Source of the DNA: Promethearchaeota archaeon | GTDB lineage: Archaea > Asgardarchaeota > Lokiarchaeia > Sigyniarchaeales > SOKP01 | NCBI GenBank assembly: GCA_048938025.1 | Contig: JBHLMP010000014.1 | Span: 1-38,101, forward strand | Direction: 5' to 3' | DNA: 38,101 nucleotides | Shown: piece after piece, positions 23,409 through 29,989 of the stretch | How the letters are laid out: every line of letters starts with the position of its first letter | How positions within the stretch are numbered: the first letter of the stretch is position 1 | The notes under the pieces: generated by a model | Databases searched by the model: none | The model's input: only the letters and a program-made list of their open reading frames with translations | What the model was told of the DNA's origin: nothing | Program-made: the position numbers and the translations under genes

Positions 23409-24404
23409 TTATAAAACAAAATATGAAATAAAAAATAAAATTGCTGATAAAATAAAATTAAAGGTCAAATTATCATCAATTTCTAAATCTAAGTAGTCAA
23501 TTCCCCCAATAATCAATGCCCCTAATATTGGAATTAAAAAAAACCCGAAAATGCTTGGATCAAAAAAGCTCCTCAACAATATTAGTATAATAATACCCGA
23601 AGAAAATGATATTACCATCCCCGCGAATAAACCTTCATACGTTTTATCTGTATTGCGAATTATAGTTTTTCCTATTATTCTACCAATTAAATTTGATGCT
23701 ATATCTCCAAAAATTGCCATTGTCATAGTGGTACAGATTATTACTGGACCTATTGGTTGGAATAACCCAAATAAAAGAATTATTGAAAAACACCCGATAC
23801 TCATAGAAATATGAGGCCCAAATCTCATATGCAACTCCTTTTCTCGTAATATTTGATTAACCTGTTTAAGAGGATAAATTTCAGGGTTTAATATTCTGAT
23901 AAATTCAGCTGTTAATAATCCAATTAAAGAGATTCCTACCAAGAAAATAACTAAATTTTGAGAAAAAAACATTTTATCTCCATTTATATTAAACCCAAGT
24001 GTAAAATACGAAAAAATTATTCCTAAAACAACTAAATGGGTTAACTTTCTATAAATATCATATTTTAAAGGTAATGGTTTAAAGTGTTTGGTATCTCTCT
24101 CTTTCCGCTTTTTAATTTTTTTTTTCTCTCGCAAAATAAAAAGTGAAAATATTGGAAAGAATATTCCAATAAAGCTTATCATCAACAGATCAAAGGGAAA
24201 AACAATAAATTCATTATAAGGTGTGTTTAAAAAAAAATGAATTCCTAAATTTATAGTAAGTGATATAATTAAAACTAGAGCATTTACCAAATTATTAATA
24301 AATGCTTCTCTTTCTCCTTTAATTTTTGCTAAAAAGGCTATGTATAATAGAATTAGGCTGTATAAATAGAAAAAACTTGATATTATTATCGAAAGTACAT
24401 TCAA
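23409..24404 (-). CDS. CTP-dependent lipid kinase (phytol/dolichol/DGK1-like), multi-TM
   Basis: RKLTH, LREKE, GDIASNLIG...KTYEG, IDDNL. Confidence 0.85.
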   Translation of the reverse strand: MNVLSIIISSFFYLYSLILLYIAFLAKIKGEREAFINNLVNALVLIISLTINLGIHFFLNTPYNEFIVFPFDLLMISFIGIFFPIFSLFILREKKKIKKRKERDTKHFKPLPLKYDIYRKLTHLVVLGIIFSYFTLGFNINGDKMFFSQNLVIFLVGISLIGLLTAEFIRILNPEIYPLKQVNQILREKELHMRFGPHISMSIGCFSIILLFGLFQPIGPVIICTTMTMAIFGDIASNLIGRIIGKTIIRNTDKTYEGLFAGMVISFSSGIIILILLRSFFDPSIFGFFLIPILGALIIGGIDYLDLEIDDNLTFNFILSAILFFISYFVL

Positions 24405-24512
24405 GAGTTACCAATCTCTTAAATTTGAATATTCTAAGGTTTCTTTCATTTTAATATTTTCTTATAAATTGAAAATAAATTATTAGATAAAAAATTAATA
24501 AAAAATTATTAT

Positions 24513-25922
24513 TTAAAATTGAGATTCATCAATTTTTGGCATTTCCTCTGATGATAATGCTTTTTGGATTTCTTTTGTTGGCAATTCATAATCTTCCAAA
24601 TCACCGGTCATAAACAATTTATAAGCTAATAAATCAAAAAAGCCATGACCGCTAAAGTTGAAGACGATTGTTTTCTTTTCGTTATCTTCTTTGGCTTTTA
24701 ATGCTTGATCTATTGCTTCTTTTATGGCATGTGCAGTTTCAGGGGCAGGAAGTATTCCTTCAGTCTTTGCAAATAAAAGACCGGATTTAATTACTTCAGA
24801 TTGATGATGCATAGATGCGGATATAACTTTATTATTATACAAGATTGAAATTATAGGTGCCATTCCATGATACCTTAATCCACCTGCATGAATAGGACTT
24901 GGAACAAACGTATGACCTAATGTGTGCATTTTTACAATAGGTCCTTTCATAGAAGTATCTCCAAAATCCCAGCAATATTCACCTTTACAAACACTAGGAC
25001 AAGCTCGTGGCTCAACTCCAATAATTTCTACATCTGGAAGAATTCCATGTAGTTTATCTCTTGCAAAAGGAATCATTAAACCAGCAAAGTTAGAACCTCC
25101 TCCCATACAACCAATTATTATGTCTGGTTTATCAATACCTGCTTTTGCTAACTGAATTTTTGTTTCTTGCCCTACAATTGTCTGATGTAAAAGCACAAAA
25201 TTTACAACACTTCCAAGAGAATATCTGATTGTATCACTTCTTAAGCTATGTTCCAATGCTTCAGATATAGCTATTCCTAAACTACCTGGATGTTCTGGAT
25301 CTTTTTCTAAGAAAAATTTGCCTGATTCAGTATATCTCGAAGGACTTGCATGAACTTCTGCATTAAAGGCCTTCATTAAAATCTTTCTTCCTGGTTTCTG
25401 TAAAAAACTCACTCTTACCATATATACTGTGCATTTTATACCAAATAAATTACATCCATAAGAAAGTCCAGAACCCCATTGTCCTGCTCCTGTTTCCGTG
25501 ACCAATTCTTCAATACCATCTTTTTTAGCATAATATGCTTGAGTTATCGCTGTATTTGGTTTATGGGATCCTGTAGGTGAGACAGATTCATTTTTATAAA
25601 AAATCTTTATATCATCGCCTTCTATTCCCAATTCTTTTTCTAACCCTAATGCTCGATGAAGAGGACTTGGTCTATAGGTTCTTGCGAAAATTTCTCTTAG
25701 ATCCTTAGGGATGGGAATTGTTGGTTCTTGAGATATTTCTTGTATAACACATTCTTTTGGAAATATCGCTAATGCTAATTCTGGTGGAGCTGGTTTCCCA
25801 TCCATAGGATTTACTAAGGGCGTCATAGGAGACGGTAAATCCGGTATGATATTTACCCATTCCTTTGGTATTTCATTGGGTTGTAATAGAATTCTTGAAT
25901 TATAATAATTTACCATTTTCAT
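24513..25922 (-). CDS. trpB2: Tryptophan synthase beta-like PLP enzyme, TrpB2 type
   Basis: SPTGSHKPN (PLP lysine), TETGAGQWG, HPGSLGIAISEA, IHAGGLRYHG, FNFSGHG. No adjacent trpA. Confidence 0.95.
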   Translation of the reverse strand: MKMVNYYNSRILLQPNEIPKEWVNIIPDLPSPMTPLVNPMDGKPAPPELALAIFPKECVIQEISQEPTIPIPKDLREIFARTYRPSPLHRALGLEKELGIEGDDIKIFYKNESVSPTGSHKPNTAITQAYYAKKDGIEELVTETGAGQWGSGLSYGCNLFGIKCTVYMVRVSFLQKPGRKILMKAFNAEVHASPSRYTESGKFFLEKDPEHPGSLGIAISEALEHSLRSDTIRYSLGSVVNFVLLHQTIVGQETKIQLAKAGIDKPDIIIGCMGGGSNFAGLMIPFARDKLHGILPDVEIIGVEPRACPSVCKGEYCWDFGDTSMKGPIVKMHTLGHTFVPSPIHAGGLRYHGMAPIISILYNNKVISASMHHQSEVIKSGLLFAKTEGILPAPETAHAIKEAIDQALKAKEDNEKKTIVFNFSGHGFFDLLAYKLFMTGDLEDYELPTKEIQKALSSEEMPKIDESQF

Positions 25923-26014
25923 TACCTTTTTTTACACATTAATTTTTTGTGTCTCATTACTATATTGGAAATCGATATAATTAATGCACATTTATCTAGA
26001 GTATTCGATAATTT

Positions 26015-26050
26015 AGAAAAACGAAAATTAAGAAAAGAGAGAAAATAAGG
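26015..26050 (-). terminator. U/pyrimidine-rich tract between leader ORF and trpB2 (candidate conditional terminator)
   Basis: Minus strand reads CCTTATTTTCTCTCTTTTCTTAATTTTCGTTTTTCT, directly after the inverted-repeat arm. Confidence 0.5.
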
Positions 26051-26076
26051 TATGGTTTAATCCAATATAATGGGTC

Positions 26077-26148
26077 TTACAACCAAGACCAAGGCCACTG
26101 CCAAAAAAAATAATTTCCAGTTGCCATAAAATTAAACCATTTTATCAT
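26077..26148 (-). CDS. Putative Trp-rich leader peptide MIKWFNFMATGNYFFWQWPWSWL upstream of trpB2
   Basis: Hand translation from ATG 26148 to TAA 26077 gives 5 TGG in 23 codons, four as WxWxWxW before the stop. Alternative start ATG 26127. Confidence 0.75.
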   Translation of the reverse strand: MIKWFNFMATGNYFFWQWPWSWL

Positions 26149-26180
26149 TAGTAAAAATTATTGATTTAACAATATATTAG

Positions 26181-26190
26181 TATATAAAAA
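26181..26190 (-). promoter_or_regulatory. Candidate TATA box for the leader-trpB2 transcript
   Basis: TTTTTATATA on the minus strand, about 33-42 nt upstream of the leader ATG. Confidence 0.45.
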
Positions 26191-26290
26191 GTTAATTGAT
26201 CTAAAAAGTACTTTCTATAAAATTAAGACAATAAAATACTTTCATGCTCAACTAAAATACACAGAAATGTAAAAAAGTTATAAATTTGTA

Positions 26291-26695
26291 TTAGCGACCC
26301 TCGAAGATTTTATAAAGATTCTTTGCTGCTATTCGCATGACTTTTACAGTCTTCATTAAAGTATCAATAATTGTCCCAGCACATACAATAACTAAGCGTC
26401 CTGCATTTGTAACAACTATATATCCATTCTCAGCCCTTACAATTATTTCAGTTATATCTTCTTGAAATAAGGTTTGAATTGTTGATCTTCCAGTCATTAA
26501 TAAAGCACTAGCAAGTCCACAAAATTGATCACCATCTACTTGGTACTGGGGCAAAGCAGAGAAAGCTATTTGATAACCTTCTACGCTTACAAGTGCAATT
26601 GCTTCTATATCTGCATTAGATGTTATAAATGTGATTTGCGGACTTATTTTTTCTATATCTTCATGGTTAATACCTAAATCAGATCCAAATTGCAT
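26291..26695 (-). CDS. Roadblock/LC7 (MglB-like) protein
   Basis: IEAIALVSVEGYQIA, ASALL...G, EIIVRAENGYIVV. Confidence 0.9.
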   Translation of the reverse strand: MQFGSDLGINHEDIEKISPQITFITSNADIEAIALVSVEGYQIAFSALPQYQVDGDQFCGLASALLMTGRSTIQTLFQEDITEIIVRAENGYIVVTNAGRLVIVCAGTIIDTLMKTVKVMRIAAKNLYKIFEGR

Positions 26696-26815
26696 AAGCC
26701 TACACTTTTTAGATAATTTATATAAAATTTTAGATTATACTTATATTAAATTAATTACAATCCATTTATTTATTTATTTTCTTTAATTCAAATAAAATTC
26801 CATAATTTTCAATTG

Positions 26816-27682: not shown

Positions 27683-29989
27683 ATGATAACTACACGAGAA
27701 TCAATTAATTATCAATTTTCACTTATATTTGGTTATTCTTCTCCAAATAATCTTATTGTTGGAGATATAATTGGTCCTGGAAAATTAACTAGAGAAAGAG
27801 TGAATGAACTTTCTCAAGGTGTAATAGAATTTTTAAGGATGTATAATGCAATTTTAAGAGATTATACTGGTTCAGAAGTCTTTAGTATCGAATTTGAGTT
27901 GTATAATCTCGATGAAAAAAGTGCTCGAATAAATATTTTCCCAAAATCAATGATTTTCATACCCGGTCAATATAAAGACTGTGAAAGTTTATTGCTTGCA
28001 TTAAAACCTGAAACAGGATATTTGGATGCCCATAAATCCCGTGAAGCTATAAATAATATAAGTAGATTATTTTTTGAAGTAGAAGAATTTACAGATCGAC
28101 CTGATTTAAAAAGTGAAGAGAAATTACAAGTATATAAAAGATTTGCTACGAGATTTAGCAAAAAACTCTTTGGAGAATTAATTGAAGATAAATGGAATAA
28201 AAAGTTAATTGGTTTAAGTACTTCGCTTCCAACAGAAAAAGAAATGATAAATACTTATGCAAGAGTCAAATCAGATGTAGAATTATTATTATATAAGCGA
28301 CCATACGAGATTAACCTTTTCAATTCAAAATTCGAGAGATTGAAAAGCCCTTTTGAGGGGCAACAGTCCATAGAACATATTAAATATTCTATATCAGAAC
28401 CTAGTGCTAATTTTATTGTGGATAAAACATTAAAGTTAGGAGCAAATTTAATTAATTTAGCAAATACTGGAACAATTGATGAATCTCAAGATAGAGTTAT
28501 CTCGTTTATTATTAACTATATTAAGCAAAAAACACATAACTTAAAGGATCCTTGCACAGCAAAATCATTAATTTCCTTTATTAATAGAATTTTAATCGAT
28601 TTAGAAAGATACCTGAATAAATTCATTGAATATTCTAACTCTTTTCTTACAACTGGAGAAATCGGAGATTTGCCTGAACTGTTAAAAAAATATAAGCAAT
28701 TTGTTGTAAATAAAGCTAAATTTGAAAATGAAGATTTTGAAGATATTTGTAATTTAGCGATTAAATCAATTGATCAATCAACAATTACTCAAACAAACTT
28801 AAGAGCGATAGATTTAAGCTCTATTTTTAATTATTTTTCAGAAATTATTAAAAATAGTCTTAATTTGGTTAAAGAATCTCTTCCAAAATATCTTTCACGT
28901 AGGAGATTAAAATCCTTAATTATTGAATTAACAAAAAATTTAAAGCAAAAATTCGAAAATGAACAAAAACCAGCGAAAATTCTTGGTCAGAAATTAATAG
29001 AAAAGTTTAAAGATCATATTTTTAACCAAATTGAAGTTAACCCAATAGCTTTATCGGGAGTTCTTAAATTTAATGAAGAAAGTATAATAAAAGAGTTTAG
29101 AAGATTAATTAATACAAATATTGAACCATTTTTCAATAACATAAAACTAGATATGGGAGATTTAGTATCTTTTGTGGAAATACAAATGGATAAAGATATT
29201 AATATTATTAGAGAGCATATAGAGAAATTTAAGACTTTTTCGAGTGAATTATCTTATCTATTAAGCTATATCCTTAGATATACAACAATTAACAGGTATA
29301 TAAAAGAGGAACCTGATAAAGAGATAGCCGATCCAGTTACATTTGCCACCAGATTTCATCGGTTTTTAGAAAAACGGATAGGGGGAATTAATTTAACATG
29401 GAAATCTTATATTTTAGAATGGTTAAATGATTATACCAAAAAATTCTTTAAATTAGAAGAAAGAAAAGAATGGACCCTAGATGAGATATACAATGATTTC
29501 ATTAGCTATTTTGAAGAAAGAGAAACAAATGAGCAAAAGCTTGAGCATTTTTTAAAATTTTTAGATACGTATATAGCTCGGATATCAAATATTGAGGAAA
29601 AGAATTTATTAATTGAATTTTATAAGCAATATGATTTAAGCATAAATATTAGTACTGAATTTCCGAAGTATGTTAATAATAAAATTAAACAAGAAATAAG
29701 TATACTTAGCCCTCAATTTGAAGAGCAAGTTCCTATCAACTTTTTTAATCTAAATGGTGAGGACCACTTTTATGATTATATTAAAGAGTTGGAGTTAAAA
29801 TATTTTTCAAAATTGATCCCTAGACCATTAACTCTCATTTTAAAACATAATTTAACAAGCAAAGAGAAAGAATTATTTGGGGGAGATCTTTTTCATGTAT
29901 TAAACTTTAAGTTTTGGCATACTAATTCTAGATTTGAATTAGCAGATAATTTTAAAGAAGTATATAGAGAGTGGTTAAAGGAACTATGA
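27683..29989 (+). CDS. Large hypothetical, mainly alpha-helical protein (768 aa)
   Basis: Long ORF with no recognised motif. Confidence 0.8.
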   Translation: MITTRESINYQFSLIFGYSSPNNLIVGDIIGPGKLTRERVNELSQGVIEFLRMYNAILRDYTGSEVFSIEFELYNLDEKSARINIFPKSMIFIPGQYKDCESLLLALKPETGYLDAHKSREAINNISRLFFEVEEFTDRPDLKSEEKLQVYKRFATRFSKKLFGELIEDKWNKKLIGLSTSLPTEKEMINTYARVKSDVELLLYKRPYEINLFNSKFERLKSPFEGQQSIEHIKYSISEPSANFIVDKTLKLGANLINLANTGTIDESQDRVISFIINYIKQKTHNLKDPCTAKSLISFINRILIDLERYLNKFIEYSNSFLTTGEIGDLPELLKKYKQFVVNKAKFENEDFEDICNLAIKSIDQSTITQTNLRAIDLSSIFNYFSEIIKNSLNLVKESLPKYLSRRRLKSLIIELTKNLKQKFENEQKPAKILGQKLIEKFKDHIFNQIEVNPIALSGVLKFNEESIIKEFRRLINTNIEPFFNNIKLDMGDLVSFVEIQMDKDINIIREHIEKFKTFSSELSYLLSYILRYTTINRYIKEEPDKEIADPVTFATRFHRFLEKRIGGINLTWKSYILEWLNDYTKKFFKLEERKEWTLDEIYNDFISYFEERETNEQKLEHFLKFLDTYIARISNIEEKNLLIEFYKQYDLSINISTEFPKYVNNKIKQEISILSPQFEEQVPINFFNLNGEDHFYDYIKELELKYFSKLIPRPLTLILKHNLTSKEKELFGGDLFHVLNFKFWHTNSRFELADNFKEVYREWLKEL

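Follow-up and report, generated by a model that had tools for sequence, protein, structure and literature searches.

The putative tryptophan leader described here lies within a 38,101-nucleotide (nt) stretch of DNA, referred to below as the window, which is positions 1 to 38,101 of contig JBHLMP010000014.1 in assembly GCA_048938025.1 of an Asgard archaeon (Promethearchaeota). On its minus strand, a gene of the tryptophan synthase beta type is preceded by a short open reading frame (sORF) that is rich in Trp codons. We suggest that this sORF is likely to be a translated leader peptide that senses tryptophan and acts in cis on the gene downstream. The elements at the start of the argument are the following.

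24513-25922, minus strand: trpB2, the putative controlled gene, encoding a TrpB-like pyridoxal phosphate (PLP) enzyme of 469 codons
26148-26077, minus strand: leader open reading frame (ORF) in its long form, MIKWFNFMATGNYFFWQWPWSWL, with 23 codons, 5 of them Trp
26077-26127, minus strand: leader ORF in its conserved form, MATGNYFFWQWPWSWL, with 16 codons, 4 of them Trp, starting at ATG 26127
26083-26103, minus strand: four alternating UGG codons (codons 16, 18, 20 and 22 of the long form), the proposed sensing site
26181-26190, minus strand: TATA-like box TTTTTATATA, the candidate promoter for the leader and trpB2
25921-25926, minus strand: Shine-Dalgarno (SD)-like GGUAAU, preceding the conserved trpB2 start ATG 25916

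A preliminary description of this DNA had reported the Trp-rich ORF, its position ahead of the gene and the G-poor sequence around it, and all three observations are borne out. In the long form, TGG is codon 4 and then codons 16, 18, 20 and 22, the last four alternating and followed by a Leu codon and the stop. The stop codon, TAA, occupies 26079-26077 and the first ATG of trpB2 is at 25922, with 154 nt between them. Outside the sORF the intergenic DNA has 9.5% G and one TGG trinucleotide in 296 nt; the 72-nt sORF contains seven TGG, five of them in frame. Judged by its profile scores the gene is TrpB2, with 628 bits against NF009057 (cut-off 366) and 577.9 bits against TIGR01415 (above the cut-off), compared with 136.8 bits against the canonical trpB profile TIGR00263, which is under the cut-off of 392.45; SPTGSHK, the PLP-lysine motif, was found in its translation. 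The long-form start at 26148 is common to three of the loci examined (L002, L072 and L093), and the internal ATG 26127 aligns with the start used by most relatives (MATV...WQWPWxWQ). The TATA-like box that had been noted ahead of the ORF is present; it precedes the conserved leader ATG by about 60 nt, and its TTTTTA is invariant across an alignment of the 26 same-genus loci described below. A TATA box at roughly 40-60 nt upstream of the leader ATG means that the sORF is not leaderless. For trpB2 itself, translation probably begins not at the first ATG but 6 nt further in, at ATG 25916 (MVNYY...): orthologues align to it (MV[DN]Y...), with GGTAAT 5-10 nt upstream, and in 32 aligned leaders GGTAA is nearly invariant 8-10 nt ahead of the ATG.

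Such an sORF is rare in its own genome, an assembly of 3.52 Mb in 88 contigs with 29.3% GC and 96.7% completeness. At least five Trp residues occur in five of the 17,719 ATG-initiated sORFs of 15-35 amino acids (aa) found in all frames of the whole genome, and among intergenic ATG sORFs of 8-45 aa that lie no more than 350 nt upstream of ORFs of at least 100 aa, the leader is the sole one with three or more Trp in an eight-residue window. The background figure for the counts that follow is 0.58%, or 14 of 2420 upstream regions, the window's own included, that pass a W.W rule (W.W among the last eight residues of an sORF that has 8-70 aa and lies no more than 400 nt upstream of an ORF of at least 150 aa). 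A search of the genome for leaders of other amino acids (His, Cys, Met, Tyr, Phe, Thr and Pro) gave just three Tyr-rich and two Phe-rich sORFs, as expected in AT-rich DNA. Reading the sORF as a hexamer microsatellite was considered and rejected, as Tandem Repeats Finder reports none there.

The preliminary description had proposed looking for Trp-rich sORFs ahead of trpB2 orthologues, and such sORFs are widespread. In 61 related genomes, 26 full-length orthologues from the same genus were identified, with 78-100% protein identity, the window's own locus among them. At all 26, an sORF with three to five Trp codons ends 128-175 nt before the trpB2 ORF, and near its end it carries WQWPWxW or a close variant (WRWHWQ, WQWLCWH). 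The N-terminal part of these peptides is variable (MATVR..., MTLAKNL..., MVFKN...). Sampling was then widened to other genera, families and classes in the phylum, and with the 61 loci so added the set came to 87 Asgard trpB2 loci, 61 of which meet a strict rule for the leader. The window's class accounts for 55 of these (out of 67 loci) and other classes for 6 (out of 20), one of which (L076) looks like a chance match. Leader endings in the distant families include TWPWH, SWAWH, FPWAWRP, WRWQWCWRWQ, IWPWNN, GWPWRGPWQ and SWHPWRSWRWQ, and the shortest leaders have 13 residues and the longest more than 60, with only the W-x-W end conserved. The best-conserved block of the leader is TGGCAGTGGCC, and the W-x-W motif is kept in families whose nucleotide sequence is otherwise different. 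When 31 additional trpB2 upstream regions were scanned, the sORF was found in 20; ahead of bacterial (Clostridia) relatives of TrpB2 with 47-50% identity it was found in none of five. In one genome of another genus (G241, contig C50), two trpB2 genes lie 15 kb apart, each with its own Trp leader (L071 and L072); of the two copies, one is 93% identical to the protein encoded in the window, and its leader has the long form as well (MIIWFNFMATGNYYFWQWPWSWL). This arrangement suggests, from the sequences, that gene and leader were duplicated or transferred as a unit.

Evidence that bears on translation comes from a search for phased TGGNNNTGG clusters that was blind to reading frame. It covered 161 upstream regions and yielded 118 unique clusters with two to six UGG repeats each. 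In the Trp frame, a stop codon lies within three codons of the last TGG in 95 of the 118 clusters, compared with six in each of the other two frames, and an in-frame upstream ATG without an intervening stop is found in 102, compared with six and seven. The stop is TAA in 64 clusters, TAG in 40 and TGA in 13. A stop of constant position and changing identity, combined with an N-terminus that varies, marks the sequence as an ORF and not as an RNA repeat that binds a protein or a tRNA. The relatedness of the loci leaves the contrast between frames unaffected. This frame-specific conservation of start and stop argues for translation of the leader.

The same kind of leader precedes a second set of tryptophan genes, which the preliminary description had not predicted. 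Some same-genus genomes carry a full operon, trpD-C-F-B-A-E-G by Pfam assignment. In one of these (G026), MSTVKIFSWRWQCWWRV ends 195 nt ahead of trpD; in another (G036), ...MANEKIIPFRWHWSWRA ends 186 nt ahead of it and is followed by a hairpin like that at the window's leader and by copies of the downstream blocks known from trpB2. The strict rule is passed by 25 of 36 trpD upstream regions in the window's class, with G026 failing solely through a different spacing of its Trp codons, and by one of seven in other classes, where trpD is not the first gene in six of the seven. Those six regions (in f20, f21, f27 and f31) are uninformative about a leader because another long ORF precedes trpD. In a complete genome of the same order (G055; one contig, 6.0 Mb), the trpB2 leader hardly differs from the trpD leader between the start of the sORF and the 3' end of an 18-bp hairpin, beyond which the two diverge. 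The leader also occurs in the complete genomes G050 and G045. That a Trp-rich sORF is tied to two different sets of tryptophan genes is hard to explain except as Trp-specific control in cis.

Two further observations concern the trpD regions. Between leader and trpD, at eight loci of several genera (L160, L161, L165, L167, L169, L172, L173 and L179), there is an 80-99-aa protein with the motif GPEK..TA.FIA.NY, which matches no Pfam family at curated cut-offs, has no homologue in the window's genome (G000), and may be an operon-specific regulator. At L156 (G060, f7), 53-80 nt upstream of trpD, a frame reads ...FFWSWSWHY-stop without an ATG, GTG or TTG start after the preceding stop; this may be an unusual start or a decaying leader.

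The Trp codons and the stop codon lie within RNA that can pair. Three features of the leader RNA matter here.

26093-26125, minus strand: helix H0, pairing GGCAACUG (26125-26118, the start region) with CAGUGGCC (26100-26093)
26073-26090, minus strand: hairpin H1, pairing GGUCUU (26090-26085) with AAGACC (26078-26073)
26015-26050, minus strand: U-rich tract, 24 of 36 U, a candidate archaeal termination signal

The 5' arm of H1 consists of the Trp20-Ser21-Trp22 codons, and the stop codon lies within the loop and 3' arm. A consensus scan of the window flagged H1 as terminator-like, with one such element found and 0.1 expected. In folds centred on the stop codon, at least four pairs enclose the stop in 56 of 62 leaders, including families of unrelated sequence. 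The preliminary description had called for covarying stems to be sought, and H1, overlapping the last Trp codons and the stop, covaries. Its arms take the forms GGCGUU/AACGCC, GGCAUU/AAUGCC, GGUCUU/AAGACC, GGCUUU/AAAGCC and GGUGUU/AACAC. In a second register, CGU-UGG-C pairs with G-CCA-AC, and in the same way CAU goes with AAU and CAG with ACU, such that the codon between the Trp codons covaries. Cognate H1 arms have a mean of -11.21 kcal/mol, compared with -9.65 kcal/mol for swapped arms, and none of 10,000 permutations was as low.

When a five-helix structure (H0, H1, H2, H4 and H3, the last two described below) was imposed on the alignment of 32 leaders, to which all pairing figures given here refer, 80.2% of cells were paired, compared with 34-45% for slid partners, and 21 pairs were changed on both sides, compared with 12.6 +/- 2.2 in shuffles (0 of 500 reaching this number); two caveats apply to this test, as the sequences share ancestry and one of them supplied the structure. 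Taken by itself, with folds of individual sequences included, H0 has weak to moderate support (80.7% of cells paired, one pair changed on both sides). In two loci of another Asgard class (L079 and L089, f18), a hairpin with arms CCUCC/GGAGG follows the Trp-rich sORF and pairs an SD-like sequence with its complement, which hints, by its sequence, at a translational variant of the device. A scan of 25850-26300 against Rfam up to E = 10 returned no T-box or other relevant family; its two matches, CRISPR-DR63 and PhotoRC-II at E = 5-6, were far under their gathering scores.

Downstream of H1 the leader is rich in U. A tract of about 36 nt had been pointed out in the window, and it is present at 26050-26015. 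Over the 90 nt after the leader stop, the T fraction is 0.488, compared with 0.375 in 990 control intergenic segments, and a run of at least five T occurs in this interval in 50 of 59 leaders, compared with 481 of the 990 controls. A uniform test looked for hairpins with an energy no higher than -7 kcal/mol and an end at most 3 nt from a T-rich window, and such a candidate terminator is found in 65 of 106 leaders, compared with 37% of dinucleotide shuffles; the feature is thus enriched and not universal. The arrangement is easier to make out in GC-richer relatives: in f2 a long hairpin extends from the stop codon on and is followed by GUUCUGAUUUUU, in f4 GCACGCGA...UCGUGUGC is followed by U6, in f7 CUUAAA...UUUAAG is followed by U5, and in f33 GCCUG-U5-CAGGC is followed by about 40 nt of U runs.

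Between the U-rich tract and the SD-like GGUAA lie two more hairpins.

25954-25987, minus strand: Block C, or hairpin H4, GCAUUAAUUAUAUCGAUUUCCAAUAUAGUAAUGA, with covarying stems and the conserved loop GA(U/A)UUCC (GAUUUCC-like)
25934-25952, minus strand: hairpin H3, ACACA...UGUGU, which is CACAUCU/AGAUGUG in most relatives

The H4 helices are paired in 97.7% and 89.7% of cells, with five pairs changed on both sides; H3 is paired in 69.8%, with two pairs changed on both sides and G-U wobbles on the sense strand. The module recurs in at least 11 trpD leaders (L154, L158, L161, L162, L165, L167, L170-L173 and L179), where compensated stems include CAUU/AAUG to CUUU/AAAG and AUAUUG/CAAUAU to GUGUUG/CAACAC. 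By its pattern of substitutions the module looks like an RNA element with a function of its own, possibly an RNA that binds a protein or ligand, or possibly an operator. Two pairings that might tie it to other parts of the leader were tried and rejected: the H4 loop AUUUCC with GG(U/G)AA, as an anti-SD, and the CAUUGGA that follows H1 with UCCAAU of the H4 loop. Each is complementary in part of the sequences, and neither showed covariation by eye.

We consider it likely that the sORF is translated into a Trp-sensing leader peptide, and that it acts in cis on the downstream trp gene through ribosome stalling, H1 and termination. Transcription would start at the TATA box, near 26186, and proceed through the leader towards trpB2, while a ribosome translates the 16-23-codon leader. 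With charged tRNA-Trp plentiful, the ribosome would pass the four alternating UGG codons, terminate at the stop and leave; H1 would then form, with its 5' arm drawn from the last UGG codons and the stop enclosed, and the polymerase would terminate in the U-rich tract. With tryptophan scarce, the ribosome would stall with UGG in its A or P site and cover the 5' arm of H1. With H1 blocked, the polymerase would cross the U tract and read through into trpB2. In f2 the stalled ribosome would cover the base of the long hairpin, and in relatives with the full operon the same device would govern read-through into trpDCFBAEG. This is a simple occlusion model that invokes no alternative antiterminator, and it supposes translation of the sORF, its co-transcription with trpB2, stalling, and termination as the output. 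As to the more specific proposal, that Asgard archaea (Promethearchaeia and at least some sister lineages) have genuine ribosome-mediated transcription attenuation of tryptophan synthesis in which UGG stalling is set against a hairpin and U tract, we regard the chances as even. The control of trpB2 by a Trp leader that the preliminary description had put forward has gained strong comparative support and an additional target.

Several observations weigh against this reading. The strict rule fails at 26 of the 87 trpB2 loci. At two same-genus loci among those that fail (L013 and L016), WCWQWPW is kept and a 1-nt deletion lengthens the tail by frameshift. The sORF is truly absent from two g21 loci, one g22 locus and one g27 locus (L064); at the g21 and g22 loci the intergenic region is short, with a AACTTTTTAAAT-type TATA box at a distance of 60-90 nt from trpB2. 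The counts come from related genomes that are not independent and so overstate the number of independent events. Among the sequencing runs listed as containing 24400-26800, 20 were DNA runs and none was an RNA run. As regards structure, the shuffle z of the stop-centred window is weak (mean -0.61), G-rich UGG runs folding in any order, and RNAalifold on the whole leader gave -4.68 kcal/mol with 14 pairs. This weak consensus arises because the hairpin register differs between subgroups, and H1 was therefore judged by the stop-anchored comparison and the named structure. A mutually exclusive antiterminator was looked for in folds, in the alignment and in helix counts, and no conserved alternative pairing was found. 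U-runs are common in DNA of 29% GC, with at least five T in 49% of the controls, and the 37% of shuffled leaders that score as terminator-like points the same way. To our knowledge, oligo-U is enough for termination by archaeal polymerases and no hairpin is required, and the putative link from H1 to termination is the weakest step of the proposed mechanism. Lastly, the H4/H3 module persists in L064, where the sORF is deleted, and could hold an independent promoter or regulator.

A Trp-sensing, translated leader might instead act after transcription, with H1, H2, H4 and H3 remodelled so as to change access to the trpB2 ribosome-binding site or the stability or processing of the mRNA, an outcome that we think rather unlikely. 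A long structured region with the covarying H4 and H3 does separate the sORF from the SD-like GGUAA, the conserved H4 loop is partly complementary to GG(U/G)AA, and hairpin-dependent termination is not, as far as we know, established for the archaeal polymerase. However, the sORF stop is 128-360 nt from the main start codon, which makes direct occlusion impossible, no covariation of the H4 loop with the SD was seen, and Block C persists without the sORF, whereas a hairpin and T tract recur right after the sORF in distant families. Persistence of Block C in L064 is also what one might expect if the sORF were a separate transcription unit, acting in trans or in some other role, and trpB2 were expressed from its own promoter in the U-rich region or Block C under a DNA-binding protein that recognizes palindromes. 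Block C offers such palindromes (AATGCGCATT, ATTG-N5-CAAT and CACATCT-TA-AGATGTG), and it has a TTTTAAT at about 54 nt from the ATG, on the upstream side. Transcription factors are, moreover, the known means of control for archaeal trp genes: TrpY of Methanothermobacter is a DNA-binding trp regulator that controls a trpB2 too. In the available part of its description, TK0271/Tar of Thermococcus is likewise a protein regulator of archaeal trp genes (PMC6737238). Both proteins resemble the present element in controlling archaeal trp genes; they do so by binding DNA at promoters, whereas here there is a cis-encoded sORF with RNA structure. The H4 and H3 stems covary, the H4 loop is conserved, wobbles are of the sense-strand G-U kind and the H3 loop varies from 2 to 9 nt, all of which is RNA-like rather than operator-like. 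Across families, the sORF remains in close linkage with two distinct sets of trp genes, and at loci that lack the leader a Block-A-like TATA box immediately precedes trpB2, as though the leader had been inserted between a promoter and its gene. We therefore consider a separate transcription unit improbable.

Two other explanations concern what the Trp codons are for. In a mechanism like that of tnaC, the arrest peptide of the E. coli tryptophanase operon as set out in the part of PMC8429421 available, the nascent W-x-W-P-W would sense free tryptophan within the ribosome and stall it at or near the stop. The likeness lies in a Trp-related leader peptide acting near its own stop codon: W-P-W is kept across the class and Trp residues stand one to three codons from the stop. 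Proline near the stop is, in addition, typical of arrest peptides. The tnaC peptide, however, is conserved, senses free Trp and induces a catabolic operon, whereas the present peptide varies and would act on an anabolic target, and what is conserved is its multiple UGG codons. Neither a peptide conserved in length and sequence outside its W-x-W end nor a target suited to induction by high Trp was found, as the gene is biosynthetic and the logic would be inverted, with high tryptophan switching on a Trp-forming gene. Moreover, the residues between Trp codons covary with the RNA arm, which indicates a constraint at the level of RNA, and an arrest peptide thus appears very improbable to us. Still less credence goes to an untranslated RNA motif whose phased UGG repeats would bind a TRAP-like protein, or the CCA end or anticodon of a tRNA in the manner of a T-box. 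The strict UGG-NNN phasing and the over-representation of U-UGG-C at the nucleotide level speak for such a motif, and the TRAP/trp leader of B. subtilis and Trp T-box riboswitches are similar in exerting Trp-specific control at the RNA level through phased triplets or a UGG specifier. Against this, it is in the Trp frame alone that an ATG and a stop are conserved, and the identity of the stop varies; the window's genome has no match to PF02081 (TRAP), in a search whose control detects B. subtilis only; the Rfam scan gave no T-box; and the repeats, which lie in an ORF with conserved start and stop, number two to six, compared with the 9-11 (G/U)AG repeats of TRAP sites.

Leader-peptide attenuation is a textbook bacterial mechanism, and the proposed Trp leader of trpB2 is best compared with E. 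coli trpL and with the his, leu, thr and pheA leaders of Proteobacteria. It shares with them a short ORF with clustered codons for the end product upstream of biosynthetic genes, regulatory codons within pairable RNA, and a hairpin and U-rich stretch afterwards. It differs in belonging to an archaeon with an archaeal polymerase, related to RNA polymerase II (Pol II), and in having two to six Trp codons, alternating as W-x-W-x-W at the very end of the ORF, rather than one tandem pair. The codon-rich ORF on the same strand and its conservation are found here, whereas the alternative terminator and antiterminator of the classical attenuator are not: no 2:3 antiterminator was found, and the hairpin draws its 5' arm from the regulatory codons themselves. 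A long U tract follows, partly set apart from the hairpin, and there is neither sequence similarity nor an Rfam match. A comparison can also be drawn with simpler attenuators, of which the E. coli pyrBI leader, working by ribosome occlusion, is one. The poly-Cys attenuators of mycobacteria, described as leaderless sORFs in the part of the preprint available (bioRxiv 10.1101/834739), are another. In both, as proposed here, a ribosome on or next to the 5' arm prevents a single hairpin and no antiterminator is needed; these systems are bacterial, whereas here Trp would be sensed and the sORF is not leaderless.

Full-text searching of the literature brought up neither an attenuator nor a leader peptide for an amino acid in archaea; supplements and the majority of subscription journals were outside its reach. 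One Asgard paper, in the text available, uses the term 'leader peptide' in its bacteriocin sense, and a term search of the available text of a 2021 review of archaeal transcription-translation coupling did not find the word attenuation.

The gene content of the genome bears on why such control might be of use. In profile searches of this 96.7% complete genome there was no match to trpA, to indole-3-glycerol phosphate synthase or to a chorismate-binding domain; the sole trpD-like match scored 40.8 bits, under the 199-bit cut-off, and no canonical trpB scored over its cut-off. As none of these was found, TrpB2, encoded by a stand-alone gene, would be the sole Trp-forming step. TrpB2 alone makes tryptophan only from indole and serine, a well-established function in this family, and on this analysis the enzyme probably salvages these two compounds here. 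With TrpB2 as the only Trp-forming gene, Trp-dependent control of it is physiologically sensible. Among 400 Asgard genomes, trpB2 is present in 284 and trpD in 65, most of the genomes keeping TrpB2 alone, which suggests a wide dependence on external indole across Asgard genomes, with indole salvaged from partner organisms.

The genes around the leader and trpB2 complete the description of the locus.

26291-26695, minus strand: Roadblock/LC7 gene, upstream of the 368-nt intergenic region that leads to trpB2
23409-24404, minus strand: multi-pass membrane protein of 331 codons, downstream of trpB2 and followed by pyrI

The 331-aa membrane protein has no Pfam or NCBIfam match and keeps its place after trpB2 at 20 of 29 related loci; similarity begins near residue 27, which makes its TTG start doubtful. 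Elsewhere in the window, the 768-aa ORF at 27683-29989 on the plus strand has no Pfam match at E <= 0.001.

The element resembles a bacterial leader-peptide attenuator, though in another domain of life and without alternative hairpins, with a mechanism that we infer from its features. It offers a simple marker of Trp-regulated genes for the annotation of metagenome-assembled genomes of Asgard archaea, and the H4/H3 module, shared by the leaders of trpB2 and of the trp operon, may add a further layer of control. If our interpretation is true, this would be the first leader-peptide attenuator in Archaea, and it would provide direct genetic evidence for regulatory coupling of transcription and translation in the closest prokaryotic relatives of eukaryotes. 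It would mean that Asgard archaea read the charging of tRNA by way of the translating ribosome, and that RNA hairpins or the position of a ribosome can modulate termination by the Pol II-related archaeal polymerase.

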